Assembly: GCA_964418775.1 (NCBI GenBank)
Contig: CAYQNA010000002.1
Span: forward strand, 22,181-86,180
Direction of reading: 5' to 3'
Source of the DNA: an uncultured Gammaproteobacteria bacterium
GTDB taxonomy: Bacteria > Patescibacteriota > Patescibacteriia > Magasanikbacterales > UBA922
DNA: 64,000 bases
The notes under the pieces are model-generated. The model did not search any database. It saw only the letters and a list, made by a program, of their open reading frames with translations, and had not been told where the DNA came from. Positions 1,546 to 45,396 of the stretch are shown here, piece by piece. Position 1 is the first letter of the stretch. Every line of letters starts with the position of its first letter. The translations under genes were made by a program, and so were the position numbers.

Positions 1546-1998
1546 ATGAAAATATCTTGCAGACCATTCAAAAAAGAAGATTTTACAGAATACCAAAGTT
1601 GGTTTTCTGATAATATCCTTAACCAAGAGCTCGGACCAATGGAAAAAGATGATGAGTGGTTAAACCATGTATTGAGAGAAACAATGGGGAAAGAATTCAG
1701 CTTCTTTATGGGCGAAGAACTAATTGCAGTGGTAGGAATTTTATTCCCCACCCAAAACGAACAGGCTTTTTACATTACTGATTTTGCGGTTAAACCAAAC
1801 CAACAAGGAAAGGGTGTGGGGTCAGCCGTACTAACCTATCTTTTATCTTTACACAAAGTAGAAACGGTCAAAATCTGGAAAGTTTATGTAAACAAAAGGA
1901 ATAAACTTGCACAAAAATTTTTTGAGAAAAATAAGTGGGATCACATTGACACTCCACCTGAAAAAGAAATGCTGCAAATGCAGCATACTATTTTGTAA
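1546..1998 (+). CDS. GNAT family N-acetyltransferase
   Basis: Acetyl-CoA binding motif VKPNQQGKGVGSAVL; 150 aa; ATG start. Confidence 0.7.
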   Translation: MKISCRPFKKEDFTEYQSWFSDNILNQELGPMEKDDEWLNHVLRETMGKEFSFFMGEELIAVVGILFPTQNEQAFYITDFAVKPNQQGKGVGSAVLTYLLSLHKVETVKIWKVYVNKRNKLAQKFFEKNKWDHIDTPPEKEMLQMQHTIL

Positions 1999-3157
1999 CC
2001 TCAGGACGAGCCGCAGCATTGGCAGCGGCTTTTTTGTAAATGTCGAGCATTTGTTTGGCGACGAGGTCGATGTCGAATTTTTGTTCAGCGATTTTGCGAG
2101 CCCGCGCGCCCCAGCCAGACTGGTCATTGCCACGCGCGAAATAGCCGTAGAGCGCATCAGCCAGGTCCGAGGCGCTGCGCGGCTCTACCAACGTACCGGC
2201 TTCGAGTGCGAGCGTGCGCACGCCCGGGAGGTCAGTCGCAATCACCGGCAAACCACTGGCCAGGGCTTCCAAAATCACCATCCCAAACGCTTCACCGCGC
2301 GTAGTTGATGGCAAGACCAATAAATCCGCGGCATTGTACACGGCTGGTAAACTGGCGTCATCAACTTGACCCAAAAAACGCACGCGGTCAGTAATCCCAA
2401 GACCCGCAGCACGGGTTTCAAATTCGGCACGCAAGTCACCGTCACCAACCAAGAGTGCCTGCACCATTAATCCCCCATTTTTTACCATAGTGAGCGCGTC
2501 GAGAAGTACAGGGACACCTTTGAAAAAATGCGCACGATCCATACCGCCCACAAACACAATTATTGGTGCGTTTGGATTTAGACCTGAAGCAGCGAGCCAG
2601 TCGACAGGTTTTGGGTTTGGAGCAAAACGCTTGGTATCAACTCCAAATGGGACCTCAAACCAATGTTCCGGTTTGGCTTGATACAATTTTTTGGCATCAC
2701 TGGCCGTAAGATAATCAAAAGAGGCTGAGTGTAGGGCATCGGCTACGCCCAAAATCTTTGGCAACCAAAACGTCGCGTAATATTTAAAAAACAAACCAAG
2801 CCAACCCTGCGCACGATTATCCATGTGATACGTGACTACAAGTGGGATGCGTGGATTTTTTTTCTTCCAGCGGCGCACCAAATTAGCCGTACCAAAAAAT
2901 GGATAGTGCAAATGTACTAAATCAAACTGGGAAAGTTCGGATGACAAACCTGGCAACCACGCCGCGTTTCCGTATTTAAAACCTGGCTTAAGACGGGTCG
3001 CGAGCATCGTATCATCCTCGGTCGGGCCCTCGAATTGTGGTGTGTACACACGCACATCATGGCCTAGCCGAATTTGCGCATTGGCCATTTCGAACGCCAC
3101 ATTTCCCATGCCGCTGTAATACGGTGGAAACCGACACACAATGTGCGCAATTTTCAT
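1988..3157 (-). CDS. Glycosyltransferase family 4 (GT-B)
   Basis: C-terminal EAFGMVILEALASGLPVIATDLPG GT4 signature. Track ORF starts at a TTG (3196); trimmed to ATG (MKIAHIV...) at 3155-3157, 1 nt after the upstream stop. Confidence 0.75.
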   Translation of the reverse strand: MKIAHIVCRFPPYYSGMGNVAFEMANAQIRLGHDVRVYTPQFEGPTEDDTMLATRLKPGFKYGNAAWLPGLSSELSQFDLVHLHYPFFGTANLVRRWKKKNPRIPLVVTYHMDNRAQGWLGLFFKYYATFWLPKILGVADALHSASFDYLTASDAKKLYQAKPEHWFEVPFGVDTKRFAPNPKPVDWLAASGLNPNAPIIVFVGGMDRAHFFKGVPVLLDALTMVKNGGLMVQALLVGDGDLRAEFETRAAGLGITDRVRFLGQVDDASLPAVYNAADLLVLPSTTRGEAFGMVILEALASGLPVIATDLPGVRTLALEAGTLVEPRSASDLADALYGYFARGNDQSGWGARARKIAEQKFDIDLVAKQMLDIYKKAAANAAARPEVTK

Positions 3158-3158
3158 A

Positions 3159-3491
3159 TTAGCGATTCGCATTTTCAACTGCTTCGCGCCGCACAACCTG
3201 TGTTACCTGGCGATTAATGGTTTCCATTTTTACATGCAAACGAAAAAGCAAAAAGAAAATTGCGGCAATTGCGGCGTACACGACCACATCGGTCCCACGC
3301 CCGATCCCCAAAGCTTTAGCAACTTGTTGAGTACTTTCGGGCCACATGACCACTGCCCACGCGCCAACCCAAACTAACACCCAAAATGACGCCGCGCGTC
3401 CACTAAGGCCTTTATTTTTAAATTGCAAAAATGTGGCCACGAGCGCGCCAATTGCAAAAATGCTAAACAAAATTTGAAATAACCCAAACAT
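3159..3491 (-). CDS. Small membrane protein, DUF2304-like (commonly partners a GT2)
   Basis: 110 aa, 3-4 predicted TM helices; sits directly downstream of a DPM1-like GT2. Confidence 0.5.
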   Translation of the reverse strand: MFGLFQILFSIFAIGALVATFLQFKNKGLSGRAASFWVLVWVGAWAVVMWPESTQQVAKALGIGRGTDVVVYAAIAAIFFLLFRLHVKMETINRQVTQVVRREAVENANR

Positions 3492-3492
3492 A

Positions 3493-4155
3493 TTATTTTT
3501 TAATAAAAGCCCCTAAAAACAGGTCGCGCACAATTGCCACTGCCCCACGGCTCCCCTGTCCGTATTCATGATACTGTACGGTAACGGGAAATTCGCGCCA
3601 CGTCAAATTATGTCGTTTGATTTGGGACAAAATTTCCGTGGCATGAGCCATGCGATCTTGCTGCAATTCAATCGTCTCAAGGGCCCGCGGACCAAGCACG
3701 CGGAAACCATTGTGCGCATCGCTCAAATGTAACCCAACAAACAAACGATGAAACCAGCGTGCCGCCGGCAATAAAATACGACGTTTAAACCAGGGCACAT
3801 GCACCGTATCTTTTAAAAACCGCGAACCAAGCACAATGTCTGCACCATGCTCTTCCAAAAATTGCACAGCTGGAACAATATCAGCGGCGCTCAATTGCCC
3901 ATCACCATCAAAATGAATCACATATTTTGCCCCACGCTGACGTGCGTAGGCATGTCCAGTCTCCAAGGCCGCACCCTGTCCGCGGTTAATTCGGTGCGAC
4001 AACACCGTAGCTCCCGCGGCCTTAGCAATCACTTCCGTATCATCGCGCGAACCATCGTCGACCACCACGACTTCGTCAACAACACCGCGCAGTGCCGCCA
4101 CTACGTCACGAATTCGCTCTCGCTCATTAAATGCTGGCACTATCGCAAGCCACAT
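3493..4155 (-). CDS. Glycosyltransferase family 2 (polyprenol-phosphate sugar transferase-like)
   Basis: IVPAFNERERI...VVVDDGSRDDT...HFDGDGQ GT2 motifs. Track start is TTG at 4278; ATG (MWLAIVPAFNE) at 4153-4155. Confidence 0.75.
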   Translation of the reverse strand: MWLAIVPAFNERERIRDVVAALRGVVDEVVVVDDGSRDDTEVIAKAAGATVLSHRINRGQGAALETGHAYARQRGAKYVIHFDGDGQLSAADIVPAVQFLEEHGADIVLGSRFLKDTVHVPWFKRRILLPAARWFHRLFVGLHLSDAHNGFRVLGPRALETIELQQDRMAHATEILSQIKRHNLTWREFPVTVQYHEYGQGSRGAVAIVRDLFLGAFIKK

Positions 4156-4156
4156 A

Positions 4157-5170
4157 TTATTCACCAATTTCTTTGTTAGCGAGTGTGTAATCGACCGTGC
4201 GTTGTAAACCATCTTCGAGACGCGTAATCGGCAACCACCCCAACTCATCTTTGGCACGACGCAAATCGGGAATACCAATTAAAGTCAAAAAATCGAGCGG
4301 CGGTTCAAATTTTACATTTGATTTTGAATTGGCCAAACTCACAATCGTGCGCGCCACATCGGCCAAACGCACTGGTTGGTCTGAACCAACATTTACCAAA
4401 CTAATCTTAGGACCGGAGCTCATCAAACGCACGAGCGCATCGACCAAGTCAGATACAAAGCAGAGCGACTCTTGTAACTGCTCAGTACCGTAAATGGTTA
4501 AATCATTACCTTCGAGCGCATTCAAAATAAAATCTGGAATCATGAGCCCATCGCGTAAACGCATACGCGGGCCATAGGTTGGGAACACGCGTGCAATTTT
4601 GGCATCGAGCCCATATACTTGGCGGTATGTGTCCACGCATGTTTCCGCAAAACGTTTGCCTTCGTCATAACACCCGCGTGGCGATAAATGATTTACCCGA
4701 CCTTCGTCACCTTCGTTAAAAAAATAATGTTCGGGAGTGGCCTGACCATATACGACCGCGCTCGAAGTAAACACGTATTTGGCCTTGTATTTCACGGCCA
4801 AATCAAGCGTCGATAGCATGGCGCGCGAATTGGCCCACAGCGAATGAATTTTTAAATTTTCAAAATTCTTTGGACTACTTGGACAAGCCAGGTGATAAAT
4901 TTCCTGAATACCCTGAAATTTGACCTTAAATTTATCAAGCTCGGGGAAATCATGTAGGTCAATAGCCTGATTCACGTCGTATTTTATAAATTCAAAGTCA
5001 GGATACTGCAACAAATGTTCTATATTACCGAGACGTGAATTCGACAAGTCGTCCATGCAAATCACATTGGCATCGCGCAGCAAACGTTCGCACAAATGCG
5101 AACCAATAAAACCAGCCCCGCCGGTCACGAGCACATTTTTTTTCTCAAAAATTGGCGCAGAGTTTAGCAT
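4157..5170 (-). CDS. NAD-dependent epimerase/dehydratase, UDP-glucuronate decarboxylase (UXS)-like
   Basis: [19 protein letters not shown], YxxxK region. Track start is GTG at 5188; ATG (MLNSAPIF) at 5168-5170. Confidence 0.7.
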   Translation of the reverse strand: MLNSAPIFEKKNVLVTGGAGFIGSHLCERLLRDANVICMDDLSNSRLGNIEHLLQYPDFEFIKYDVNQAIDLHDFPELDKFKVKFQGIQEIYHLACPSSPKNFENLKIHSLWANSRAMLSTLDLAVKYKAKYVFTSSAVVYGQATPEHYFFNEGDEGRVNHLSPRGCYDEGKRFAETCVDTYRQVYGLDAKIARVFPTYGPRMRLRDGLMIPDFILNALEGNDLTIYGTEQLQESLCFVSDLVDALVRLMSSGPKISLVNVGSDQPVRLADVARTIVSLANSKSNVKFEPPLDFLTLIGIPDLRRAKDELGWLPITRLEDGLQRTVDYTLANKEIGE

Positions 5171-5178
5171 ACAGAAAA

Positions 5179-7164
5179 TTAAGGCCACAATACCCAGCGG
5201 CGGCCACTTGATAATTCTGAAAACAATGAAATTTCTTCAACTACACGACCAGAGTAATCAAGCACACGTGCTGGCGCGGTACTGGTCGTTGGGTACATAA
5301 TTATTTCGGCACGCGCATCATCGTTGTAATCCCCGACCGTCCAGTCCCATTGCGCGGAAGGAGCCGTGATCGGCAAACCAAGTTCCCACTCAGCCGCCAT
5401 ATTATACAGCTTTACCGTTGGGTTTAGACCAACTGGCGCCACCACAATTGAACCTTGTCCGCGCGCATCAAAATCACCGGCTGCCAAGCGGTACTCAGCT
5501 TTTGGCAAAGTCACGGTGGCGACGGTTTTACCATTACGTGCCGTAATTAACTGCACACCGTTTGTTTGCGAAACCAGTGCTGCCAAAGACCAATTGCCAG
5601 TATCTGGCACACTGGTTAATTGCGTCACACCTTTGTGCGCTGCGCCTAAATCCCAGGTACCAACTTTTTTTCCAACCACACTGTACAATTCGACCACAGT
5701 TTTACGGCTAGCCGCTGTGGCCACAGCCAAACGGGCGTCCTGGCCAGCCGATTTTTCAAACGCCAATATAACTGGATTTGGCGACGCAATTACAAACGAA
5801 CCAGTCGCATTCCACTGCTTATCGTAGACAGTAATGCGCTGATTTTTTTTACCCTCGGCCTTGGCCACGGCATAATACTCCGTGCAGGGAAATTGATGAA
5901 ACGCCGCCACCGCATTTGTGCCTGCAAACGTACCCATGGTGAAAAATCCACGCGACGTGGCCGTGGTGCGCGCGGTGGTGGTTGGTAATAACCAATCTTC
6001 AACTCGGCGTGCATCACCAGCCCACAAACCAACACTACCCATGTACGGGTAAATCCCGACATCCGAACTTTTGCGCGGCCCGGCATTGGCCGCACGGACA
6101 GCACGGTCAACCCGCAACAAGCCATACCCATAATATTGCTGATACGCCGTATCCGAAGCCATGCACGTATGTGAAACACGTCCCAGCATGGCACGATAAA
6201 TATCATCAGCCTTCCAATCGGGACGCAAAGCTTTAATTAAAACGGCTGCACCCGAGGCAAATGGGGTTGCAAACGAGGTGCCAGCCCACCCAGACACGTA
6301 CCCGTCAACACCATACCAACCGGCCGCATTCACGTTTTCGCCCGGCGCGGTTAAATCAATACAATCCGGACCGTAATTCGAGAAACTCGACAAACGACGG
6401 TCTTCGCTCACGGCACTGAGGCCAATCACCCACTGCTTGGCAGCGCCGCGGTCAGTACACACGGGAAATGACGGCAAGTCTGTATAAGAGGCGGCCAAAT
6501 TCCCGGCCGATGCAAACACTGCGACACCACGGTCCACGGCAAAACGCAACGCTGTACGCAACGTTTCGTCGTCCTGTTGACTATTCACGCTCAAATTAAT
6601 AATTGAAGCACCGTTTTTGACTGCATACGTGATTGCCTCGGCCAGGTCACCGTTAAATCCATCGCCTTTATTGTCTGCAGCACGCAAATTCATTAAGCGC
6701 ACCTCCCAAGCAATCCCTGCCCCATCGCGACTATTATTACCAATAGCCCCAATAATCCCAGCTACTGAGGTGCCGTGACTAATACCAATGTCTGATTGGT
6801 CCGGTGCCAAATACTGAGCATCAGGCGCCGGGTCATTGTCATTGTTTACAAAATCCCAACCATTTACATCATCAACATAGCCGTTCTGGTCATCGTCACG
6901 ACCATTGCCTGGCACTTCGGCTTCGTTGCGCCACATATTGGCCTGCAGATCGGCGTGACTGGCCACAATCCCATTGTCGATAACAGCCACAATGACATCA
7001 TGGCTGCCCGTGGTATAATCCCAGGCCAGTGGTACACCTGTTGCAGTGTACCCCCATTGCTGAATATGGGGATCATTGGCGTTTCGTGCCAAAGCAAGCC
7101 CTGGTTCAAAGCTCAAAAAGATTGCGGAAAATACTAAAAAAATTCTGGTTATTTTACCCTGCAT
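5179..7164 (-). CDS. Secreted S8 (subtilisin-like) serine peptidase with C-terminal FG-GAP/VCBS-like repeats
   Basis: Signal peptide; catalytic triad contexts VIDNGI (D), HGTSVAG (H), GTSFATP (S); C-terminal GDFDARGQGSIVVAP / GDYNDDARAEIIMYP repeats. Confidence 0.8.
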   Translation of the reverse strand: MQGKITRIFLVFSAIFLSFEPGLALARNANDPHIQQWGYTATGVPLAWDYTTGSHDVIVAVIDNGIVASHADLQANMWRNEAEVPGNGRDDDQNGYVDDVNGWDFVNNDNDPAPDAQYLAPDQSDIGISHGTSVAGIIGAIGNNSRDGAGIAWEVRLMNLRAADNKGDGFNGDLAEAITYAVKNGASIINLSVNSQQDDETLRTALRFAVDRGVAVFASAGNLAASYTDLPSFPVCTDRGAAKQWVIGLSAVSEDRRLSSFSNYGPDCIDLTAPGENVNAAGWYGVDGYVSGWAGTSFATPFASGAAVLIKALRPDWKADDIYRAMLGRVSHTCMASDTAYQQYYGYGLLRVDRAVRAANAGPRKSSDVGIYPYMGSVGLWAGDARRVEDWLLPTTTARTTATSRGFFTMGTFAGTNAVAAFHQFPCTEYYAVAKAEGKKNQRITVYDKQWNATGSFVIASPNPVILAFEKSAGQDARLAVATAASRKTVVELYSVVGKKVGTWDLGAAHKGVTQLTSVPDTGNWSLAALVSQTNGVQLITARNGKTVATVTLPKAEYRLAAGDFDARGQGSIVVAPVGLNPTVKLYNMAAEWELGLPITAPSAQWDWTVGDYNDDARAEIIMYPTTSTAPARVLDYSGRVVEEISLFSELSSGRRWVLWP

Positions 7165-7228
7165 ACCCTTGATTTTTTCCTAAAATATGATATAAATAGT
7201 ATACCATATTGACCTCTCTGACTCAATT

Positions 7229-8614
7229 ATGAAATCCGGCTACCGACTTCAACAAATCCTACTTTTGCTTGGCGACCTTGGCACATACCTGCTGGCGCTG
7301 TGGTTTGGTTTGTTTATTCGCCACTTGGCGCTGCCTACAGCTGACCGATATATTGAACACCTGCCTCTGTTTGGCAGTCTTTTTGTTGGTTGGGTGATTA
7401 TTAACTACATCAATGGCCTGTACGATTTAGGTCGTTTTACTGAACGCAGCCATTACCGTCGTTTATTTGAATCAGCGGCTTTTTTCTTTTTAATTAGCGC
7501 TTTGACCCTATACGCGGCTGACCCAGGTCTCACACCAAAGACAATTTTATTCCTCACTGTGCTGGTGGGGTACTGCTTAAGTACAGCCTGGCGCATGTTG
7601 TATTACCGAGTGATCGTGCAACACACGTTGCACACACGTCTGATTATTTTAGGTCATGACCCAGAGGTGGCTGAACTGATTCGCTTAACCAAACAGCACC
7701 CAGAAAAAGGCTACCAAGTTGTGGCCCTGTTTGACCCTCGTCGCGAAGTTGGGGCCAATAAGCTGGAGGGTATTGATGTGTATACTTCAATGACTGCGTT
7801 ACGCGCTGCAATTACCACCCACAAAGCCAATGTAATTGCCGCTGCCAGTTCAGTCCAAAATGACGAAGTGGTGATTCGTGAATTGTATGAATTATTGTTT
7901 TGGCCAGTGCGCGTCACTGACCTCTCGTCTTTGTACGAAACAATTACCGGCCGCGTACCGCCCAGTGCGTTTTCCGAAACCTGGTTTTTGCGCAATGTAG
8001 GGGCTGTGGATGCGCCAGGATACCGTTTGTTCCGTTTGTTTTTGGATGGCTTGGCTACATTGCTCATGACTACAGTCTTAGTGATCTTGTTCCCAATTAT
8101 TGCTCTGGCGATCAAACTATCCTCAAAAGGACCGATTTTCTTTGGTCAACAACGCGTTGGTCGCGGCGGCACCCTATTTACCATGCACAAATTCCGCACC
8201 ATGTATGTGCTTGCCGCTGACGGCAGTGCCGAGACTCATGGGGCCCAATTTGCCACCAAAGACGATGCCCGCATTACGGCGGTGGGTCGCTTTTTGCGCC
8301 GCACCCGTTTGGACGAACTGCCTCAGGCCGTAAACATGCTCCGCGGGGAAATTAGTTTAATTGGCCCACGCCCCGAGCGCCCTGAATTTGTGCGCACCCT
8401 GGCGGCCAGCATGCCCTACTACGCGCTCCGTCACGTAGTTCGCCCTGGCATTACCGGCTGGGCCGCGATCAACCAAAACTACACGGACAATCTGGAGACC
8501 ACCCTCCAAAAATTACAATACGATCTATTCTATATAAAAAATCGCTCTGCCCTGTTGGACATCGCGATTCTATTGCGCACAATAAACGTGGTTGTGCGCA
8601 TGCTGGGCCAATAA
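7229..8614 (+). CDS. Polyprenyl glycosylphosphotransferase (WbaP/CpsE-type sugar transferase)
   Basis: Four N-terminal TM helices, then KGPIFFGQQRVGRGG...DELPQAVNMLRGEISLIGPRPE bacterial sugar transferase domain. Confidence 0.85.
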   Translation: MKSGYRLQQILLLLGDLGTYLLALWFGLFIRHLALPTADRYIEHLPLFGSLFVGWVIINYINGLYDLGRFTERSHYRRLFESAAFFFLISALTLYAADPGLTPKTILFLTVLVGYCLSTAWRMLYYRVIVQHTLHTRLIILGHDPEVAELIRLTKQHPEKGYQVVALFDPRREVGANKLEGIDVYTSMTALRAAITTHKANVIAAASSVQNDEVVIRELYELLFWPVRVTDLSSLYETITGRVPPSAFSETWFLRNVGAVDAPGYRLFRLFLDGLATLLMTTVLVILFPIIALAIKLSSKGPIFFGQQRVGRGGTLFTMHKFRTMYVLAADGSAETHGAQFATKDDARITAVGRFLRRTRLDELPQAVNMLRGEISLIGPRPERPEFVRTLAASMPYYALRHVVRPGITGWAAINQNYTDNLETTLQKLQYDLFYIKNRSALLDIAILLRTINVVVRMLGQ

Positions 8615-9523: not shown

Positions 9524-9526
9524 ACA

Positions 9527-11874: not shown

Positions 11875-11875
11875 A

Positions 11876-16716: not shown

Positions 16717-16718
16717 AC

Positions 16719-21484: not shown

Positions 21485-21486
21485 AC

Positions 21487-23778: not shown

Positions 23779-23780
23779 AT

Positions 23781-26627: not shown

Positions 26628-26631
26628 ACAA

Positions 26632-27558: not shown

Positions 27559-27561
27559 AGG

Positions 27562-28686: not shown

Positions 28687-28687
28687 A

Positions 28688-29476: not shown

Positions 29477-29477
29477 A

Positions 29478-31024: not shown

Positions 31025-31025
31025 A

Positions 31026-32363: not shown

Positions 32364-32364
32364 A

Positions 32365-33156: not shown

Positions 33157-33157
33157 A

Positions 33158-35927: not shown

Positions 35928-35928
35928 A

Positions 35929-36654: not shown

Positions 36655-36659
36655 ACAAT

Positions 36660-37387: not shown

Positions 37388-39397
37388 CTATTTGGTTCCA
37401 TTAATGATTGCTCTAACCTGCTCGCCTTCTACACCAAAGGTTATGCCGCTTTTATCAGCGTCTGCATAGAGAGCTTTAGCCTTAGCTGTGTCCCCGTTTT
37501 CGTGATAGGCCAACGCCAAACGCCACCAAGCAGCCTCGATTGTTTTATCTGCTTCCCATGCCTGCGTTAAAATTGCGACCGACTTGTCACGCTGACCAGT
37601 TTGGGAATAAATTGCCGCTAATAAAAACTGAACCTGCTGACGACGTGGCGACTTAGTGAGCGCATCTTCCAAAGCCTCTTGTGCTTCGAGCAGATAGCTA
37701 GGCTTATTTTCCAACTGCGAACCAACTAATGCTAACTGGGCAATATTTAGCTGATTGCGGATATCATACGGATGCATTAGACGATTCTGTTTTAGCCCTT
37801 CATACGCGGGCTTAAACAGTGTAAGCGCGATATCTTGACGTTTAGCCTGCTTATACTGTGGAATCAGCTGGTCAACAACACGCGCAAAATCAGCGCGTAT
37901 GTCGTCCACATGTGGTGATTTCGAAAGCAGGGCCTGATTATAATAATCCAAAGCCAATACTGGATTTGAATATAACGATTGCAGAGCCTTGAGCGTAAGC
38001 TTATTTCCGTTTGCCACACGTATATTAGTAGTATAGATCACAAGCGCGGCCACTATACCCGCCGTCACCAATAATCCCGTACCAACCTGTTTATCAGACC
38101 CCAGCTTAACGGTCTGCGGTTGCATAGCCAGCTGATTCAACATGGCCAATGTGAAAAATAGATATAACATTGAGGTTGGGTTTTCAAACACAAATGTTGC
38201 CTGCACCAAATGTGCGGTCAAAAATCCCAACCCAAACACTAGCACTGGCAAGTCAATCCGCTTAGCTCGATAGGCGCCAATCAACATCCAACCAGCTGCC
38301 CCAAAAATCCCCAAAAATGCAACCACACCAATTGCACCCTGCGTAGCCAACGTATTCATGATAATATTGTGTGCGTTATCAAACCACGTTTCACCCCAAC
38401 CATAGCGTAAAAATTCCGGACGGTAATACTCGTTAAACGCGTAAAAGAAATTATTTACACCCCAACCAAACACTGGCTTTTCTTGCCATGCCTCAATTGC
38501 AATCTGCCACGACATAATACGGGTACCAGCCGTTGCACTGCTGACACTGGTATTTACCAGCACACCTACCGCAGGAATGTTGCGAACAAATGAGGTGGTG
38601 CGGAAGGCATAGAGTAGCGCCACCACTGCAACCCCAGCTATAGCGGCCCCACCTACCCATTTACGAATTTGCGAACCACGTGACGAAGTCACCACCAATG
38701 TAATTGCTGACACAATCAAACCAGCAGCCAACCCCACTAATGTGCCGCGCGTACCACTGAACAGCAAACCAGCTACCCCAAACAGTCCAGTCGTAATCGC
38801 ATACATCCGCCAGGCACGTTCACGTTCACGCCATCCAGCAAAAACAGACAAGAAAATTAAAAACAAACCATACCCACCCAGGTAAATCGAATTCCCAAGC
38901 GTACCAGCCACACGTTGCGAGCCATTATTCAACAGTAATGTTGGATTGATTTTTTGTCCCACCCCCACCACCATCACTACTGTAGCCGCGGCCATAAAAC
39001 AACGAAGTAACCATTCCCACTTTGCCTTATCAAACCCAACGTGAGTAAGCACGAAATAAAATGCAATATAGTGAGTCAACGTAAAGACACCCAGCATACG
39101 CTCGTGGCCATCCCAAAAACTGCGATACCAATCCACACTTGTAAATGTGGACAGTAGTAAGCTGACCAGATATACGAGCACCGCAATGGTAATCGGAGTC
39201 AAACGAACTTTATAACGTTGGTAATTGAGCCCCAACAGTAGCCCATAAGTCGCCAACATTAAAACAGCAATAGTTCTAAACCATAAAACTTTTGGGACAA
39301 CAAAAGGGAAAATGTAGGTCTGGTATGACACTATCCAGGGCACCAAAAACGTCACAATCGCGGCCCCAAACACACTTTTCTCCAAAAAATTACGCAT
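37388..39397 (-). CDS. O-antigen ligase (Wzy_C) domain membrane protein with C-terminal TPR repeats; candidate O-oligosaccharyltransferase
   Basis: Multi-TM with Wzy_C-like loop, C-terminal TPR (ALAYHENGDTAKAKALY). Track ORF begins at a TTG (39475); first in-frame ATG at 39395-39397. Confidence 0.65.
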   Translation of the reverse strand: MRNFLEKSVFGAAIVTFLVPWIVSYQTYIFPFVVPKVLWFRTIAVLMLATYGLLLGLNYQRYKVRLTPITIAVLVYLVSLLLSTFTSVDWYRSFWDGHERMLGVFTLTHYIAFYFVLTHVGFDKAKWEWLLRCFMAAATVVMVVGVGQKINPTLLLNNGSQRVAGTLGNSIYLGGYGLFLIFLSVFAGWRERERAWRMYAITTGLFGVAGLLFSGTRGTLVGLAAGLIVSAITLVVTSSRGSQIRKWVGGAAIAGVAVVALLYAFRTTSFVRNIPAVGVLVNTSVSSATAGTRIMSWQIAIEAWQEKPVFGWGVNNFFYAFNEYYRPEFLRYGWGETWFDNAHNIIMNTLATQGAIGVVAFLGIFGAAGWMLIGAYRAKRIDLPVLVFGLGFLTAHLVQATFVFENPTSMLYLFFTLAMLNQLAMQPQTVKLGSDKQVGTGLLVTAGIVAALVIYTTNIRVANGNKLTLKALQSLYSNPVLALDYYNQALLSKSPHVDDIRADFARVVDQLIPQYKQAKRQDIALTLFKPAYEGLKQNRLMHPYDIRNQLNIAQLALVGSQLENKPSYLLEAQEALEDALTKSPRRQQVQFLLAAIYSQTGQRDKSVAILTQAWEADKTIEAAWWRLALAYHENGDTAKAKALYADADKSGITFGVEGEQVRAIINGTK

Positions 39398-39463: not shown

Positions 39464-39500
39464 GATAAAAACCAAAAACCCCCCGAATACTCGGGGGGTT
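39464..39500 (-). terminator. Rho-independent terminator of the surface-protein gene
   Basis: Minus strand: CCCCCCGA-GUAU-UCGGGGGG followed by UUUUUGGUUUUU. Confidence 0.7.
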
Positions 39501-39536
39501 AGAGGTTCTACCGTGTTGCGGTATTTGCCTAGACCA

Positions 39537-42500
39537 TTAGATGGCCAAAGACAAACTTGGACCGTTAACAGGGTAAGAATCTGAAGCTGAGTAAGCGGTT
39601 GTGTTGATAGAACCGTTTACTGGTGTGTAGAAATATTGAATCACACCGTCAGCCCAGTTTGCTTCGTGTGTGGCGTTGCCAGACACGTAACCACGAGAAC
39701 CAGCCAAAGACGCAGATACTGTAACAGTACTTGGGTACGAAGTTCTACCGGCTGCAATATTATTAGTATTAGCAGTCAATACAAATGTACGAGAAGCACC
39801 TGGAGCGATCTGGATGTCTTCGAACAAGCTCTGGCTATCGGAATCTACACCGAACACGAGGTTCAAGGAACTTGTAACCGAGTTGGCACAAGCACCAGTA
39901 GCATCCGAAGCAGTAGCACCAATACCACCAGCGATACAAGCTGAACCAGTAACACCACCCGAAGAGTTTGTGTTATTAGCCAAACTACTTGTAGCAAGGG
40001 TCTGACTGTTGAAGCCAGCACCTTCAGCGTCGTGTAATTCGAAGCCGTAGATAGTACCAGTACCACTTGTTGCACCACTAGCCAACAAGCCACTTACCTG
40101 CACGTTGATCGTGGTTGTACTCATCTTCATTGGGCGATCACCTTGGTTAGTAACGGTGAAGCGGAAGATCTGAGACTGTGTTAGTTTGGACAAGGCAGTG
40201 CCATTGGCCAAAGTTTCACTTACGATCTTTGGAGCAGCGTTGTGGAACAAATAGAATGTAGTTGTAGCGTGTGTAGCGTTGTATGTCTGACCACTTGCAC
40301 CAAAGTCAAGCATTGTATTCTCTACAGTACCACCCGACGAGCGTAACATCTCGAAGTTAGTTGTAGATGTAGGAGCAATGAAGAAAGCAGAGGTAGTAGC
40401 AGGAGACATTACGCCCGAACCAGTAATTTGACCCATGAGGACCAAATACTTAGTTGTGTTAGCCTTGATGGTCAACATGTTGCTCTTTTCAAAGCGAACG
40501 TTACCACTGGCGTATGGCGATTCGTCAAGCGAAGCACTCATGGCATCGGCATCGTACAAAGACAATGTACCGAATTCAGAAGCCTCAGTCTTAGTTGAAC
40601 CATCTGGACGAGATACGAGGAACGTAATCTTGTTCAAGGTAACATCTTCGTTCTGAGCTTCAACCTTCCACTTACCAAGTTGTACTGGAGCAGTAGAAGG
40701 AGTGTAGAGCTTCGAAACTGTAGTGGTGTCGTTAATAGCCGAGATAATAACGTTAGCAGCGCCAACTGTCATTGTCTGACCAAGAACTGGATCACCAGTC
40801 TGTGGATTATTGGTTGAGAGACCAATGTATGTGAATGAGGAAAGACCCCAAACATACGAGCCGCTCGATACAGCAGAGCTGACATCACCAACAATCTGCA
40901 CAACCTTCAAAGCATTGGCTGGAACACTACCAACTGTAGTGTTGTCAATTGAGAAGGCGTTCGAAGAAGTTGCAGGAGCACTGATAGTAGCACCAACCTG
41001 TGTCAAAGACGCAGTCGATGTACCCATCATGAGCTTAAGATTCTTCACACCGCCGTTTACGATGAGTGCGTCACCAGTGCTGCTGACCGAAACGTTGGTC
41101 AAGCGAACACCTTCGGCACTACCGGCCTGAACTACGAACTGAGCCAATACAACGCCAGTACGACCGGCCGAAACAGTACCACTACCCACTGAAGTATCTT
41201 TCGATACAGTCAAGTTGGAAGCCTGTACAGTTACCGTGTTGCCCGAAGTACCTACGTTAGAACTACTTGGCAAGTTTTCAGCGTATGTCTGACTAGAAAC
41301 ACGACGAGCATAGAAGTTACCTACACTTACGAGGTAACCAGTCGATGTTGCGTTCGAGTTGATGTCACCGCGGACATACAATTTCTTAGTCTGACCAGAT
41401 GGGATTGTCCAGTACTGGGACAAGTTGCGCTGACTACCACCGGCGTAGAGAGCATCAGAAGCCGAGCTGGCAGCAAACTGAGCGAGAGTATCGCCATTGT
41501 CAGCTACCAAGCGGAGGTTACCAGTCAAGGCCATTGTAGGACCAGAAGTGGTAATACCAACGCCGATCTTCTGAATTTCGAGATCTTCACCAACAGCAGT
41601 TACGTCAAACGAAGCCAACTCTACATCAGTAGAACCAGCCGATACGTTGCCGCTCTTGGAAGCCTGGCTCTTAGAGAGAGTCAAGGAACCTTCGCGAACT
41701 TTGAAGTAACCGTCAGCAGCGCCAGTAGCTACGAAACTACTTGGCAATAACTGATAGTGCAAAGCATTGTCTTCTACCATTACGTCAAAATCATTCTGGA
41801 TCTTGGCGCGGAGGTAGTTGCCCGAACCATCCGACACCTTAGCGCGGAGAGTTACGATGCGGTTCTGACTCATTGGAACGATGTATGGACTGGTGAACTT
41901 TACAGTTACGTAACGATTACCAGCGTATTCGGTCTTACCGAGCACAGTGTTGTCCTGGCCCAAAACTTCAAAGTTAGTGAAGTCTTTGTCACGAGCATTG
42001 CCTTCCAAGAAGAAGACGATACCGTTAACAGCCAAGTTGTTGCGGCCCGAAGTTTCCGCAAAGCGGAACTTACCGATTTCCTTAACATCACCAACCGATA
42101 CGTTAGCAGCGTCGCCAGAAGCGGAGTTACCACCTACAGCTGTCGAAGTAACAGTAAAGGAGGACAATGAGTTGCCACCGTCAACAACACTCATGATGTT
42201 ACCAGCAACTGGGAAGGAACCTTCCACAGACGAGGCATCAGTCATGATGTGAGCTTTGTCAGCAATCGAAGCACCAACCGAGCCGGAGCCGGCGTCGCTC
42301 GAAAGATTGAAAGCAACAGTAACAACTTCTGTGGAACCAGCAGCTACCAAGATTGGATCGCTACCAAAACCAACAGTAACCTGGTTACTGGAGTTGAAGG
42401 AAGTCATTACGTTACCTTTGCGGTAACCGGCAGAATTCCAAACACTTACACCAGTAACGTAGGTGTTGTTGATAAGACCATTACGAGTAATAGTCAAACC

Positions 42501-43397
42501 AGTCACCTTAACATCCTTGCTGGCAGCGCGGAGACTAACTTTCAACATTTTGTTGAAAGCAGTACCATCGGCCAAACCACCGGCTGGCTGTACTGGCGTG
42601 TCAGCCGAGAGGCTAACCGACAATGCGCCACCAGTTGCTGGAGTAGTAACTGTAGAACCAGAGCGCTGTGAAGGGTTAGCCGACACAGTAGCTGGAGTTA
42701 CAGTAGTACTATCCATTGAAACAGCCGAGAAGGTAGCCTCGGATACAGTGCGAACATCCTTCGAGAGGTGTGCTGGCAAAGTACCGTCAACTTTCTTCAA
42801 CATGCCATTCCAGACATAGTACACAGTGGCGTCGTTGGCTTTCTTTACCAACTGACCATCGTGCAACTTTGTCAATTCACCACTAGCCGATGAAAGGTTG
42901 GCAAACCACTGGTCAGACCAGTCGGATACCATCTTTTCCCAACCAGCACCATAGGTAGCAGTAAGAACGCTGCCGTCAGTTACCTTTACCTTCATGTTGC
43001 CTGGAGCCACGGCCCAGATTGTTGGGCTAAGTGGAGTCTTGAGAAGACGAGAACCTGGGCGGAAGTTTACACCACCGGCCAAATCATAAGCGTCCAAACA
43101 AGAAGATGGGATTTCTTTAACCTGTACGTTAGCAAAGCTACCGTACCAGCTTTCGAAAACCAACGATGTTGGGAAGTACAAGCGCTTCATGTCGCTTGTC
43201 AACAAGTACACAGCAGTTGTTGCTGGGTTGCTCTTTATTGTTGGAACCTTGAAAAGGTCACCAGCAACGAGCTCAGGGCAGGAAGCTGCAGCCACGCCAG
43301 CTGGAACAAAGGCCGAAAGACCTACGCTCCAGACCATGGTCATACCGACCACAGACATGGTGAAAAGCTTCTTGCCGAACTTTTTAAATTCGTGCAT
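39537..43397 (-). CDS. Giant secreted surface protein (S-layer-like), 1286 aa, Thr/Ser/Gly/Asn/Val-rich beta-repeat architecture
   Basis: Signal peptide MHEFKKFGKK...VPAGVAAA|S; no Cys after the N-terminus; strong codon bias (ggt/gct/gtt/aag/cca); monocistronic with its own terminator. Confidence 0.6.
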   Translation of the reverse strand: MHEFKKFGKKLFTMSVVGMTMVWSVGLSAFVPAGVAAASCPELVAGDLFKVPTIKSNPATTAVYLLTSDMKRLYFPTSLVFESWYGSFANVQVKEIPSSCLDAYDLAGGVNFRPGSRLLKTPLSPTIWAVAPGNMKVKVTDGSVLTATYGAGWEKMVSDWSDQWFANLSSASGELTKLHDGQLVKKANDATVYYVWNGMLKKVDGTLPAHLSKDVRTVSEATFSAVSMDSTTVTPATVSANPSQRSGSTVTTPATGGALSVSLSADTPVQPAGGLADGTAFNKMLKVSLRAASKDVKVTGLTITRNGLINNTYVTGVSVWNSAGYRKGNVMTSFNSSNQVTVGFGSDPILVAAGSTEVVTVAFNLSSDAGSGSVGASIADKAHIMTDASSVEGSFPVAGNIMSVVDGGNSLSSFTVTSTAVGGNSASGDAANVSVGDVKEIGKFRFAETSGRNNLAVNGIVFFLEGNARDKDFTNFEVLGQDNTVLGKTEYAGNRYVTVKFTSPYIVPMSQNRIVTLRAKVSDGSGNYLRAKIQNDFDVMVEDNALHYQLLPSSFVATGAADGYFKVREGSLTLSKSQASKSGNVSAGSTDVELASFDVTAVGEDLEIQKIGVGITTSGPTMALTGNLRLVADNGDTLAQFAASSASDALYAGGSQRNLSQYWTIPSGQTKKLYVRGDINSNATSTGYLVSVGNFYARRVSSQTYAENLPSSSNVGTSGNTVTVQASNLTVSKDTSVGSGTVSAGRTGVVLAQFVVQAGSAEGVRLTNVSVSSTGDALIVNGGVKNLKLMMGTSTASLTQVGATISAPATSSNAFSIDNTTVGSVPANALKVVQIVGDVSSAVSSGSYVWGLSSFTYIGLSTNNPQTGDPVLGQTMTVGAANVIISAINDTTTVSKLYTPSTAPVQLGKWKVEAQNEDVTLNKITFLVSRPDGSTKTEASEFGTLSLYDADAMSASLDESPYASGNVRFEKSNMLTIKANTTKYLVLMGQITGSGVMSPATTSAFFIAPTSTTNFEMLRSSGGTVENTMLDFGASGQTYNATHATTTFYLFHNAAPKIVSETLANGTALSKLTQSQIFRFTVTNQGDRPMKMSTTTINVQVSGLLASGATSGTGTIYGFELHDAEGAGFNSQTLATSSLANNTNSSGGVTGSACIAGGIGATASDATGACANSVTSSLNLVFGVDSDSQSLFEDIQIAPGASRTFVLTANTNNIAAGRTSYPSTVTVSASLAGSRGYVSGNATHEANWADGVIQYFYTPVNGSINTTAYSASDSYPVNGPSLSLAI

Positions 43398-43409
43398 AAA
43401 TAATGTTCT

Positions 43410-43443
43410 TGACTGAGAAAAATGATTTTCTCAAGTCAGGTTA
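43410..43443 (-). promoter_or_regulatory. Stable hairpin in the 5' UTR about 13 nt upstream of the surface-protein start codon
   Basis: cttgactgagaaaa-atga-ttttctcaagtcag, 12-13 bp stem. Confidence 0.45.
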
Positions 43444-43531
43444 TTTAAGGACTGCTTGGCTACCGGGGATTCCGGCATCGACCTTGAGGCTAGCAGTTTC
43501 CCTGATTACTCAGGGGCACCATATACCGTAT

Positions 43532-43570
43532 GGCTATCAACCCTGTACCAAGTACAGAACTGATAGCCGC
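43532..43570. promoter_or_regulatory. Nested palindrome: candidate operator or activator site upstream of the surface-protein gene
   Basis: GGCTATCA-acc-CTGTAC-caa-GTACAG-aac-TGATAGCC, outer 8-bp and inner 6-bp inverted repeats. Confidence 0.4.
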
Positions 43571-43576
43571 ACGGTA

Positions 43577-44827
43577 TTATTTTTTTGTGGAGGTTGACGC
43601 AGTCACAGTTGAGCTGGCACTAACCACAATTGGTAGATTTTTGGTTTCAACCAGAATTTGTTGTGTCTCACCCGCGGTTTGATTCAAATCCTTGAGCTTG
43701 CTTACAGCTTCGCGCAAATGGCCACCGTCAATTGTTTTTTGAATATCACCAACCGAAGCTTGCAAGGCTACAGTCTTTTGCTCGACCGCTTGAATAACAC
43801 TCGCCGGTACTATAGTAGCCGCAGCACCAGACGAAACTGTTACAGTTGTGCTTGCACTCGCTGTAGTGGTGCTAACGCCCATAGTAGATGTAGCTGGAGT
43901 TGAACTTGCAATACGGATTTCAACCAACTCAGTGGTAGAAGTAGCTTGCTGTTTGATGTTCTTAACTGCCTGTTCCAAACCAGATGTTGTTTCCGCCAAT
44001 TGGAATAACTTAGTATTTACCAAAATCGCTACAGTGGCACTGTTTGGAGACTCAGGTGAAGTTTTTTCTTGTGCTGTTACCACAGCCTCTACAGTTGTCA
44101 GAGTACTTGCATTCACTGATTTAACAGTATCAACTACGGTTTTAGTTAACTCAGTATCAACACTATTGGCAGCTGGCACAGTTTCCTGCAAACTCTTTAC
44201 AATTTCCGTGGCATTTTTATTTACATCAGTTACAATGGCAATCGCCGCTGGTAATTCGGCCTTAGAAACAGCTTGAACCTGAGTGTTTACAGCCTCACTT
44301 GCAGTTTTAACTGCTTCGGCTACATCTTTGGCCGCGACGTTCAAATCATTAACCGCTTTGGTGCGCACCGCACTGTCGTCCGACGTGGTACGCTCAGCCA
44401 CCGCACGCTTAATATCTTCGGTACGATTCTTAGCCAAACTCAAATGCAATTGTGCTTTTTCACTATCAGACGCAACCAGGCTCTTTACCGCGACTTCGGT
44501 ATTTTGAGCCGCGCGCTTTACAGACCACAAACGGTCTCCAGGCAAACTATTAAACGAGGCGCTCACACTGGCAATCCAACCACCAGTGGTCAAAACTGCC
44601 ACCAATAAACCAGCCAAAACCGGCTTAGCCAAACGCCAGGCACCAGCATTGCCAAAAATATATTTAACTTCTTCAGTGCGCGCAGACCAGGCTACTTTCT
44701 CGGGTACAACAACTGTGTTACCAATCTGGCTCATCAAACGTGCACGATTTTTTTGTGCCCATGCCAAATCAGGCTGAATGGTTTCAGCCTTTTGTAATTC
44801 GCGTAATTTGGCACGCATGGTTTGCAT
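43577..44827 (-). CDS. Anti-sigma factor-like membrane protein (single TM, coiled-coil Ala/Thr/Val-rich extracytoplasmic domain, DUF5667-like)
   Basis: N-terminal cytoplasmic region, TM LAGLLVAVLTTGGWIA, long repetitive extracellular part; start 2 nt after the ECF sigma stop. Confidence 0.55.
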   Translation of the reverse strand: MQTMRAKLRELQKAETIQPDLAWAQKNRARLMSQIGNTVVVPEKVAWSARTEEVKYIFGNAGAWRLAKPVLAGLLVAVLTTGGWIASVSASFNSLPGDRLWSVKRAAQNTEVAVKSLVASDSEKAQLHLSLAKNRTEDIKRAVAERTTSDDSAVRTKAVNDLNVAAKDVAEAVKTASEAVNTQVQAVSKAELPAAIAIVTDVNKNATEIVKSLQETVPAANSVDTELTKTVVDTVKSVNASTLTTVEAVVTAQEKTSPESPNSATVAILVNTKLFQLAETTSGLEQAVKNIKQQATSTTELVEIRIASSTPATSTMGVSTTTASASTTVTVSSGAAATIVPASVIQAVEQKTVALQASVGDIQKTIDGGHLREAVSKLKDLNQTAGETQQILVETKNLPIVVSASSTVTASTSTKK

Positions 44828-44829
44828 AA

Positions 44830-45396
44830 TTACGAATTCTTTTTTTCAAGTTCATCCAGACGTTCTTTGGCGAGTTTAAGCGCCCGGTGCAGTGTAACCC
44901 GCACGTTGGTCTGGGTTTTTTCTAAAATTTGAGCAATTTCACCGACTGACAAGTCATCCACGTAGCGAAGCAGCAAAATTTCTTGATACTCACGCTTAAG
45001 TTGACTAATAACCCGCAGAATCGGCTGGGCATCGGCCCGGCTCTCGGCGGCAGCAAATTGTTTATCTACTGCGCCGATATTTTCCGCACTTTCCAGTGGC
45101 AGATTAGTATTATGCGCCTTGGCTCGATAAAAATCGACCAAACAATTGCGCGCAATCCTATACACCAGCCCGCTAAAGCTTTGGACTTCGTCAGGTTTGT
45201 GCTCCACAAGGTAATGCCACGTTTTAAGGAACACTGTGCTCGTAATATCCTCAGCTTCTTCCTTGTTGCCCACCTTAAAGTAGACAAAGCGGTAGATTTT
45301 CGCCAAGTACAGGTCATACAAAGCCCCAAAAGCCTGGGGGTCGCGACGGGTAATGACCTGATAGACCAGTTTTTTTTCACTAAAAAGATGTCGCAT
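44830..45396 (-). CDS. RNA polymerase ECF-type sigma-70 family factor
   Basis: Region 2 (FLKTWHYL, LVYRIARN) and region 4 (LSVGEIAQILEKTQTNVRVTLHRAL) motifs; 188 aa. Confidence 0.8.
   Translation of the reverse strand: MRHLFSEKKLVYQVITRRDPQAFGALYDLYLAKIYRFVYFKVGNKEEAEDITSTVFLKTWHYLVEHKPDEVQSFSGLVYRIARNCLVDFYRAKAHNTNLPLESAENIGAVDKQFAAAESRADAQPILRVISQLKREYQEILLLRYVDDLSVGEIAQILEKTQTNVRVTLHRALKLAKERLDELEKKNS

Follow-up and report, generated by a model that had tools for sequence, protein, structure and literature searches.

Is a large secreted protein of an uncultured bacterium glycosylated by the products of the sugar genes that lie next to its own gene, and do all of these genes answer to a single regulator? 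The question is raised by a 64-kb stretch of GenBank contig CAYQNA010000002.1 (positions 22,181 to 86,180; hereafter the window), in which the first-pass annotation had taken positions 1988-45396 for one unidirectional supercluster, headed by an extracytoplasmic function (ECF) sigma/anti-sigma pair and serving O-glycosylation of an S-layer-like protein. Our analysis covered the open reading frame (ORF) list of the window together with Pfam and NCBIfam scans. The genes are real, and their order on the minus strand was confirmed: ECF sigma, anti-sigma-like gene, 1286-aa ORF, terminator, a gene combining an O-antigen-ligase (Wzy_C) domain with tetratricopeptide repeats (TPR), and dense glycan genes down to position 1988. 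Their counts, strand and unity needed correcting. The locus consists of two neighboring cell-surface modules, a coat operon (module A) and a glycan cluster (module B), and not of one sigma-headed supercluster; the two are often, not always, juxtaposed. The reading that we tentatively favor, with a probability of about 45%, is that a wall-anchored, S-layer-like coat operon stands beside a glycan cluster whose lead enzyme would transfer glycan to protein, the coat protein being the likeliest acceptor.

Homologues of the window proteins lie in Patescibacteria and indicate a Magasanikbacteria-like placement (in the NCBI taxonomy, Magasanikiibacteriota sits within the Parcubacteria group). Among public records of metagenome-assembled genomes (MAGs) with the module, several carry the title "uncultured Gammaproteobacteria bacterium" or "Candidatus Udaeobacter sp." (L006-L012, L013, L016, L018, L021 and L023); these titles are probably taxonomic mislabels. 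For comparison, 27 distinct related loci were gathered, in part by a search with an alignment of 15 closer sequences, and their ORFs were compared with the window proteins by BLASTP.

The coat-protein operon

Module A contains the following elements (positions are those of the window):

39537..43397, minus strand: 1286-aa secreted coat protein (signal peptide 1-38, N-domain 39-228, Ser/Thr/Pro linker 229-255, beta-sandwich modules 256-1286)
39467..39500, minus strand: intrinsic terminator closing the sigma/anti-sigma/coat operon (stem at 39500-39477, 10 bp with 7 GC pairs; tail TTTGGTTTTT)
43577..44827, minus strand: anti-sigma-like membrane protein, 416 aa, 2 nt downstream of sigma (DUF5667 24.4 bits; one transmembrane, TM, segment)
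44830..45396, minus strand: ECF sigma factor, 188 aa (Sigma70_r2 42.8 bits, Sigma70_r4_2 56 bits)
45404..45429, minus strand: ECF-type promoter TGTAAC-N16-CGTC, sole match in the 64-kb window
45460..45488, minus strand: candidate housekeeping promoter TTGCTT-N17-TATAGT, proposed from reading the sequence

The 1286-aa protein has no Pfam or NCBIfam match. It begins with a Sec-type signal peptide (KKFGKK, a hydrophobic core and AAA/S), and the mature form (129 kDa, pI 5.5, 4 Cys) contains one linker rich in Ser, Thr and Pro, at residues 229-255. Ser and Thr make up 23.3% of its residues, against 11.6% in neighboring proteins, in agreement with its earlier description as a large Ser/Thr-rich protein. 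There are 98 detectable homologues, nearly all of ~1200-1300 aa, and every named source is a MAG of the Patescibacteria or Candidate Phyla Radiation (CPR), assigned to Magasanikbacteria, Uhrbacteria or the Parcubacteria group. AlphaFold 2 models of the two halves (predicted local distance difference test values of 86.7 and 88.0) present an alpha/beta N-domain (~45-240) followed by tandem beta-sandwich modules. When both halves were compared with the PDB by Foldseek, only generic immunoglobulin (Ig)-like arrays were returned (PrgB, antigen I/II, integrins, transglutaminase; TM-score ≤0.22).

How such a protein could be held at the surface is suggested by a domain swap among its homologues. In P0082, three SLH domains are followed by a sequence that aligns, from residue 257 onward, to the window protein from residue 272 onward (32% identity, E 1e-68); in P0072, a PG_binding_1 domain precedes an alignment starting at window residue 256. 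The N-domain thus occupies the place where known wall anchors sit in these relatives. It is built of three internal repeats of the form G-x-L-x-K...VY-x-V..G..K. Taken as residues 38-256 (window 42630-43286), it has matches in 2801 representative clusters, where the proteins range from 200 to 1650 aa and mostly bear it right after the signal peptide. Occasionally it is found at the C-terminus, and its fusion partners include a trypsin-like protease, cohesin, TSP_3 and the Pfam "S-layer" domain. Mobile terminal placement and fusions of this kind are the behavior of anchoring modules. Judging from these relationships, the N-domain is probably a wall anchor and looks like an undescribed surface-anchoring module. 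Among close homologues, moreover, the N-terminal half is 89-78% conserved and the C-terminal half 79-54%, a pattern that fits a conserved anchor bearing a variable exposed part. The label "S-layer-like" finds support in the predicted wall-anchored build and in the SLH-carrying homologue. By structure it does not, since the Foldseek comparison with the PDB brought up no solved S-layer protein among the 50 best matches of either half; the generic Ig arrays that it returned fit an S-layer protein and an adhesin alike.

Sigma-70 regions 2 and 4 are the only Pfam matches of the 188-aa protein (Sigma70_r2, Sigma70_r4_2/r4), the composition of ECF (group 4) sigma factors. The protein encoded next to it, with a 2-nt gap, has the build of an anti-sigma factor: a cytoplasmic N-terminus, a single TM segment at ~67-90, and an extracytoplasmic DUF5667 domain accompanied by Ser/Thr-rich tracts. 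Its DUF5667 score is just below the Pfam cut-off and rises above threshold in homologues. The pair had thus been correctly recognized and placed. Upstream of the sigma gene, TGTAAC-N16-CGTC(T), a motif that we take to be akin to the sigmaX and sigmaW consensus sequences, is present in 22/22 loci covering the region, the strict pattern occurring once per ~20-kb locus. CGTC and the sigma ATG are 7 nt apart in the window and 7-8 nt across loci, pointing to a leaderless or near-leaderless sigma transcript. A membrane anti-sigma, combined with an AAC...CGT promoter upstream of the sigma gene, is the arrangement predicted for an autoregulated ECF system. Most related loci also carry TTGAC-N17-TAxxxT ~70-110 nt above the ECF promoter, at the site equivalent to the candidate housekeeping promoter; the window copy failed a generic promoter scan.

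Since neither a terminator nor a promoter was called in the interval between the anti-sigma and coat genes, the coat gene would be read through from the sigma promoters. Transcription would end at the strong terminator (39500-39477, with a T-run) that had already been ascribed to the large gene. We infer that the ECF sigma regulates the operon in which it is itself encoded, and that the coat gene is carried along there as cargo. Control of the glycan genes by the same sigma was considered and rejected, as the window holds no second copy of the promoter motif; the sigma and anti-sigma genes belong to the coat operon and do not visibly head a supercluster.

Two further genes diverge from this operon:

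45506..45874, plus strand: HTH_17/excisionase-family DNA-binding protein, 122 aa (TIGR01764 25.8 bits, just under cut-off; PF12728 on homologues)
45867..47732, plus strand: divergent DUF11/CARDB protein, 621 aa, with an N-terminal membrane anchor (Pfam DUF11 42.6 bits; one TM segment, then a 540-aa tail)

Their ORFs overlap by 8 nt, and in nearly all loci the pair points away from the sigma operon. Together with the sigma, anti-sigma and ~1250-aa genes they form a five-gene core that is kept in every locus with enough flank. HTH_17 is its most conserved member (63-93% identity where the coat protein shows only 31-65%); the DUF11 homologue, adjoining the sigma operon in most related loci, evolves fast (27-59% identity). 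The sigma/anti-sigma/coat triad is retained even in the 30%-identical L032. The HTH_17/DUF11 pair is a possible second regulator of the coat module. Its inclusion in the core, and the presence of more glycan genes at 50-57 kb, make the boundaries first drawn for the locus too narrow.

A peculiarity of the operon is the 179-nt spacer before the coat gene, in which an invariant AGGTCGA is set between flanks that vary with lineage yet stay complementary. Three RNA structures are predicted in and around it:

43446..43502, minus strand: conserved leader RNA element (8-bp P1, ~10-nt 5' bulge with invariant AGGUCGA, 6-bp P2 hairpin)
43523..43577, minus strand: long hairpin without T-run, directly past the anti-sigma stop (arms ATACCGTGCGGCTATCA / TGATAGCCATACGGTAT)
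43411..43437, minus strand: hairpin just before an AU-rich translation start region devoid of a Shine-Dalgarno motif (from the sequence; analogous stems in relatives)

Most copies of the leader fold alone into the same P1/bulge/P2 shape. Pairing is seen in 76.9% of cells as compared to 58.8% in shuffles, none of which (0/500) reaches the observed value, and 14/14 pairs show double, compensatory changes (slid controls, 30-51%). A covariance model (R1) gave one match per locus in 24/26 sources, over 559 kb of sequence, each match lying shortly before the coat gene. It also found the copy in L026, absent from the seed alignment, and had no match in L003 or in the control L030, which is without a coat gene. 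The element became visible upon specifying the structure by hand and realigning with the covariance model, a gap-free MAFFT alignment with RNAalifold having given P2 only. A search of Rfam with the leader at E up to 10 returned no meaningful family match. AGGTCGA was also considered as the -10 element of an ECF promoter; this was rejected because its spacing to AAC is inconsistent between loci and its flanks covary as helices. Long structured 5' regions occur in other highly expressed coat-protein genes. We regard the leader as a candidate new cis-regulatory or processing element specific to the coat-gene family, one that probably acts in processing, stability, protein binding or translational control of the coat gene.

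The hairpin past the anti-sigma stop is conserved in the clade with an adjacent Wzy_C-TPR gene (arms in relatives, TACTGTATGGC / GCCATACAGTA), and the other clade has a different hairpin at the same site (CTCTCTTTCC... / ...GGAGAGAGA). Terminator prediction called nothing at 43523..43577. In L006, G.U pairs are found only on the sense strand, which suggests that the structure forms at the RNA level.

The glycan cluster and its lead enzyme

Beyond the terminator, module B opens with the following gene:

37388..39397, minus strand: Wzy_C (O-antigen-ligase family) membrane protein with C-terminal TPR, 669 aa (Wzy_C 64.6 bits, cut-off 31.7; TPR_19 37.4 bits)

Both domains had been named in the first-pass annotation. 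The start codon is most likely ATG 39397, yielding a 669-aa product equal to database entry P0099; TTG 39475 is an unlikely start as it overlaps the terminator. At least 500 homologues at ~44% identity exist in Patescibacteria, and R217, R266, R293 and H343 (DNAHN motif) are invariant in 23 family members. Invariant Arg, Arg and His residues thus stand at PglL-like positions, the equivalence being one of position and motif; R224, R298 and H349 of PglL are the reference Arg/Arg/His shared with WaaL (PMC3643930). Compared with the PDB, the family profile matched the catalytic region of WaaL (7tpg, E 4.5e-6) and, at E 2e-4, structure 9rmk, an "Oligosaccharyltransferase" of 610 aa. In the TPR part, similarity was greatest to the TPRs of OGT. 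Hydropathy indicates one TM segment (436-462) beyond the WaaL plan, which would make the TPR domain extracellular. A review of the S-layer glycome assigns a C-terminal TPR to both WsfB and PglL and, for WsaB, names WsaA as its partner with TPR (PMC2943079). The likeness to WsaB that was first proposed finds its counterpart in the predicted architecture, which matches that described for WsfB in the same paper. Within Pfam, Wzy_C spans polymerases, ligases and O-oligosaccharyltransferases (PMC3643930), and a Wzy_C sequence does not separate the last of these from the other two. We consider the Wzy_C-TPR protein a candidate O-oligosaccharyltransferase.

Behind this gene, and on the far side of the core, the sugar genes are arranged as follows (GT2 and GT4, glycosyltransferase families 2 and 4; NDP, nucleoside diphosphate; SDR, short-chain dehydrogenase/reductase):

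24247..37382, minus strand: fourteen packed genes for GT2s, a methyltransferase, 493-aa and 520-aa polytopic proteins, Wzx, GT4, an epimerase-like protein, a sugar-isomerase TIM barrel and an FAD oxidoreductase (Pfam, junctions)
20501..24176, minus strand: modified-sugar genes for a cupin, a 763-aa fusion and a GFO/IDH/MocA oxidoreductase (Pfam)
21487..23778, minus strand: the 763-aa fusion, NDP-hexose C-methyltransferase with SDR 4,6-dehydratase-like part (Methyltransf_14 176.8, Methyltransf_13 88.5, Epimerase 137.9 bits)
8615..20412, minus strand: eleven genes for GT4, a double methyltransferase, an FkbM methyltransferase, a 719-aa fusion, three GT2, an SDR, an NDP-sugar dehydrogenase (TIGR03026 263 bits, above cut-off) and an epimerase (Pfam)
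7229..8614, plus strand: initiating polyprenyl-phosphate glycosylphosphotransferase, WbaP/WcaJ type (Bac_transf 201.8 bits; TIGR03025 351 bits, cut-off 295.6)
1988..7164, minus strand: left block with a secreted subtilase S8, an SDR, a PpgS-like GT2 with a DUF2304 protein, and GT4 (Pfam)
50185..57110, mixed strands: further glycan set with GT4 (plus strand), a secreted GHL15 protein with FG-GAP repeats, two GT4 and a second Wzy_C protein of 468 aa (Pfam)

Module B proper is a sugar-chain assembly cluster of ~37 kb and ~33 genes. With related contigs measuring 0.9-1.0 Mb, the ~37-43 kb of surface-glycan region is a large share of a ~1-Mb genome. The tight packing reported before is confirmed: seven junctions are 4-nt overlaps of the ATGA type and nine gaps measure 1-3 nt. 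The claim of a single direction does not hold, because the initiating phosphoglycosyltransferase gene lies on the plus strand, convergent with an epimerase gene ending at 8615. Nor do the "17 or more" GT2 and GT4 enzymes; Pfam supports 13 within 1988-45396 (10 GT2 and 3 GT4). The presumed GT-C transferases are weak assignments, as PMT_2 scores 17 bits against a cut-off of 26 in the 719-aa protein and the 493- and 520-aa proteins are without a local Pfam match. The Wzx flippase (Polysacc_synt_3, 64.6 bits), the methyltransferases and the NDP-sugar enzymes were all retrieved by Pfam. Generic sigma-70 promoter and terminator scans within the cluster scored at chance level and are uninformative on operon structure; a bidirectional terminator at 1969-1986 marks the left end.

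In the fourteen-gene block the order is GT2, methyltransferase, 493-aa protein, Wzx, GT2, GT4, epimerase-like, TIM barrel, GT2, FAD oxidoreductase, GT2, 520-aa protein and GT2. PF26314 is the family assigned, in precomputed annotation, to homologues of the 493-aa protein; single-sequence PDB searches with the 493- and 520-aa membrane proteins gave nothing useful. The GFO-type oxidoreductase resembles UDP-GlcNAc 3-dehydrogenase (118 bits, below cut-off). In the 719-aa protein, a GT2 like the polyprenyl-phosphate-sugar synthases (N-terminus AglJ/ArnC/PpgS-like) is fused to a membrane domain, and the PpgS-like GT2 of the left block (178 bits, below curated cut-off) adjoins the small DUF2304 membrane protein (3159-4278, minus strand). 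The secreted subtilase gene (5179-7164) is likewise inside the cluster.

What glycan would this cluster make? Two components of the Wzx/Wzy pathway are present, a phosphoglycosyltransferase (Bac_transf) and Wzx (Polysacc_synt_3), and suggest a polyprenyl-linked glycan flipped across the membrane. Candidates for the Wzy polymerase are the two Wzy_C proteins and the two polytopic membrane proteins. As to the sugars themselves, uronic acids or pentoses may be supplied through the UDP-sugar dehydrogenase and SDR enzymes, and the C-methyltransferase-dehydratase fusion, cupin and GFO oxidoreductase point to a branched or C-methylated deoxysugar. The latter three genes are a candidate pathway for a C-methyl-branched surface sugar. 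Four further methyltransferase genes suggest O-methylation, and the two PpgS/ArnC/AglJ-like GT2 enzymes the addition of extra sugars outside the cell from polyprenyl-phosphate donors.

Other features of the window are set apart from both modules. Genes of 60-65% GC, against a background of 45-50%, occur at 47914-49992 (plus strand), 57452-59272 (minus) and 61173-62468 (minus). They encode repeat proteins rich in Cys, Asp, Gly and Thr (Dicty_CTDC, collagen and TSP_3 matches) with lipoprotein-like signal peptides, and their composition suggests foreign origin or strong amino-acid bias. A gene for a MazF/PemK-type toxin (1036-1425, minus strand) lies just beyond the left end of the glycan cluster. 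A search of the window for tRNA genes came up empty, and Rfam, applied to the whole window at gathering threshold, gave nothing meaningful.

The coat protein as a candidate glycan acceptor

Wzy_C-TPR follows the coat gene in 13/21 informative loci, directly in 12 and ~6 kb on in L027. The adjacency recurs down to ~31% coat-protein identity, and the sugar genes behind the enzyme vary among loci (e.g., L003 versus L005). With L008 the window shares the block Wzy_C-TPR, GT2, methyltransferase, 493-aa protein and Wzx; homologues of GHL15 and of the second Wzy_C also flank the core in L005-L009. In L030, a Patescibacteria contig, a CBASS-like set (SAVED, SMODS, Cap2/ThiF, JAB; 2227-6454) lies upstream of a non-adjacent Wzy_C-TPR gene, with a HamA-family gene at the locus edge. 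Altogether, Wzy_C-TPR is linked most tightly to glycan genes. The juxtaposition of enzyme and coat gene, on which the idea of a glycosylation locus was founded, is thus recurrent but not general, the two being separate in 8/21 loci.

In the reading that we favor, module A would be transcribed from a housekeeping-type promoter and from the autoregulated, leaderless ECF promoter. Read-through from these sigma promoters would reach the coat gene, the strong terminator closing the unit, and the leader with its AGGUCGA-bulged hairpin would modulate processing, stability or translation. The coat protein, secreted by Sec and held to the wall by its triple-repeat N-domain, would display the linker and beta-sandwich modules as an S-layer-like coat, possibly a lattice. 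Module B would build a methylated, probably branched hetero-oligosaccharide or polysaccharide on polyprenyl-phosphate, through the combined action of the phosphoglycosyltransferase, the 13 GT2 and GT4 enzymes, the NDP-sugar enzymes and the methyltransferases. Wzx would flip the product, and polyprenyl-phosphate-sugar synthases may add sugars outside. Finally Wzy_C-TPR, its catalytic loop and TPR facing outward, would transfer the assembled glycan as a whole to Ser, Thr or Tyr residues of a secreted protein. The main candidate acceptor is the adjacent coat protein, most plausibly in its Ser/Thr/Pro linker (229-255).

Several findings weigh against this scheme. On the side of the enzyme, Wzy_C-TPR is not adjacent to the coat gene in 8/21 loci, where BipA follows the latter, and in the L004 genome a 44%-identical Wzy_C-TPR lies ~80 kb off on the same contig, heading its own sugar cluster. 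Its family, with at least 500 listed matches as against 98 listed for the coat family, fits a general and not a dedicated enzyme. The PglL_A motif (PF15864) was not detected, a Pfam scan at E up to 0.01 having given Wzy_C and TPR families only; and with no clearly identified separate Wzy polymerase in the window, Wzy_C-TPR could itself polymerize. On the side of the coat protein, Ser+Thr content is the same with and without an adjacent enzyme (22.8% and 24.1%), the 50 best PDB matches of each half in Foldseek include no S-layer protein, and an N-domain profile had zero matches to PDB sequences, the anchor role resting on position.

A first alternative, which we regard as doubtful, is that the cluster makes a wall-associated or secreted polysaccharide (capsule, exopolysaccharide or a polymer like teichuronic acid). 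Wzy_C-TPR would then be a polymerase or a ligase acting on a non-protein acceptor, the coat protein would be unglycosylated, and adjacency would reflect a "cell-envelope island". The enzyme always heads sugar genes and is not always beside the coat gene, its Pfam family includes polymerases and ligases, and no other polymerase is identified. Acidic polysaccharides typically go with a UDP-sugar dehydrogenase and enzymes of the uronic-acid type, as encoded here, and additional glycan genes are found on the other side of the core. However, Pfam scans of the window gave no match to chain-length or export genes (Wzz/PCP, OPX) nor to wall ligases of the LCP type. Furthermore, the large, invariant and putatively extracytoplasmic TPR is a protein-binding feature reported for WsfB and PglL, and adjacency persists over deep divergence while the sugar genes change.

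The 1286-aa protein might instead be a wall-anchored adhesin or fibril for attachment to a host or to particles, under envelope-sensing ECF control and glycosylated or not; this we consider unlikely. Its best structural matches are the Ig-like arrays of Gram-positive adhesins (PrgB, antigen I/II), and many different secreted proteins bear the same N-domain. Constitutive S-layer genes are not usually governed by an ECF sigma/anti-sigma pair, and CPR bacteria are often episymbionts according to the literature; both points count in its favor. Length and architecture are nonetheless strictly conserved (~1210-1300 aa), with one gene per ~20-kb locus examined. The protein is acidic and Cys-poor, pairs a conserved anchor half with a variable distal half, and is encoded between a long structured leader and a terminator, all of which is typical of major coat proteins. 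In addition, the C-terminal half is predicted to be compact (predicted template-modeling score 0.77) instead of forming an extended stalk, and one homologue has SLH domains.

Less likely still, as a separate explanation, is general protein O-glycosylation as in Tannerella or Neisseria, with the coat protein, the anti-sigma ectodomain, the DUF11 protein and Cys-rich lipoproteins as targets. In its favor, the Wzy_C-TPR family far exceeds the coat family in size and is also the better conserved of the two, adjacency is not required, and neighboring proteins have low-complexity tracts rich in Ser and Thr. This is a broader version of the favored reading and depends equally on a putative protein acceptor.

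In conclusion, the coat-protein build, the Wzy_C-TPR architecture and the recurrent adjacency sustain the original interpretation in part; the sigma factor as head of the glycan genes, the number of transferases and the single strand are not borne out. A bolder version, somewhat unlikely on present grounds, would make the ~1250-aa family the S-layer subunit of Magasanikbacteria-type CPR. A new and widespread wall module (at least 2800 clusters at 50% identity) would hold it in place. Its expression would rely on an operon that is ECF-autoregulated and leaderless, through a new class of leader RNA, and Wzy_C-TPR would O-glycosylate it by means of a hypervariable cluster taking up more than 4% of a ~1-Mb genome. 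Regular surface layers have been reported for some CPR/Patescibacteria species; a 2025 review of S-layer structural biology makes no mention of CPR/Patescibacteria. The CPR cell envelope is still unexplained, and the locus supplies a candidate coat protein, wall anchor, regulator, leader RNA and glycan-attaching enzyme. If true, the reading would reveal the surface that hosts and phages meet on these cells, and a monoderm lineage would join those known to have protein O-glycosylation. In a phylum for which hardly any regulatory elements are known, the invariant ECF promoter and the leader RNA with its covarying helices may also find use as such.

Comparison with known systems

The regulatory part of the locus finds its parallel in the sigmaX, sigmaW and sigmaM regulons of B. 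subtilis, with which it shares a two-domain sigma factor co-transcribed with a single-pass anti-sigma and an autoregulatory promoter with AAC at -35 and CGT at -10. Here, in contrast, the anti-sigma has a DUF5667 ectodomain and the mRNA is apparently leaderless. The sole copy of the motif per locus is the promoter of the sigma gene itself, the cargo being one large coat gene.

In the left block, the PpgS-like GT2 and its DUF2304 neighbor resemble the mycobacterial pair Rv3631/Rv3632, taking Rv3632 to be a DUF2304 protein. Common to both is a PpgS-like GT2 beside a small membrane protein, and the role of modules of this type is to provide lipid-linked sugar donors for glycosylation steps at the outer side of the membrane; the window enzyme differs in scoring under the curated cut-off for PpgS.

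The lead enzyme can be set against two relatives. WaaL belongs to the same Pfam family and is matched by the profile (7tpg), but the window enzyme adds an extra TM segment and a 200-aa TPR, and the window holds no lipid A-core genes. A genome analysis of one Parcubacteria-group CPR bacterium revealed no lipid A or lipopolysaccharide genes (PMC5220378), making a WaaL-type role unlikely. With PglL/PilO enzymes the window protein shares the Wzy_C core with conserved Arg/Arg/His and the remote profile match to 9rmk. Moreover, the PglL/PilO gene is adjacent to, and in the same orientation as, the acceptor gene in 21/31 cases (PMC3643930). The window protein differs in that no PglL_A motif was detected in it, in a candidate acceptor that is a 129-kDa beta-sandwich protein and not a pilin, and in a host thought to be monoderm.

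A "glycosylated S-layer" in CPR has been the subject of earlier speculation (PMC5220378); in our literature searches, no paper was found that links CPR, an O-antigen ligase and an S-layer gene or that describes this module. The closest known arrangement is that of the S-layer glycosylation (slg) loci of Paenibacillus alvei (SpaA/WsfB) and Geobacillus stearothermophilus (SgsE/WsaB). As in those loci, a Wzy_C putative O-oligosaccharyltransferase lies beside glycan genes and an initiating Bac_transf enzyme, which in the window is the WsaP/WsfP-type transferase on the opposite strand (TIGR03025, 351 bits). Slg loci include O-methyltransferases, as the window locus does, and the G. stearothermophilus model exports its glycan via a Wzm/Wzt ABC transporter (PMC2943079). 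In the window, by contrast, export would proceed by the Wzx flippase, and the cluster is much larger (~33 genes). The host is a CPR bacterium, its coat protein is without SLH and has the triple-repeat N-domain in its stead, and the coat gene, unlike those of the slg systems, shares an operon with an ECF sigma/anti-sigma pair and is preceded by a conserved leader RNA.

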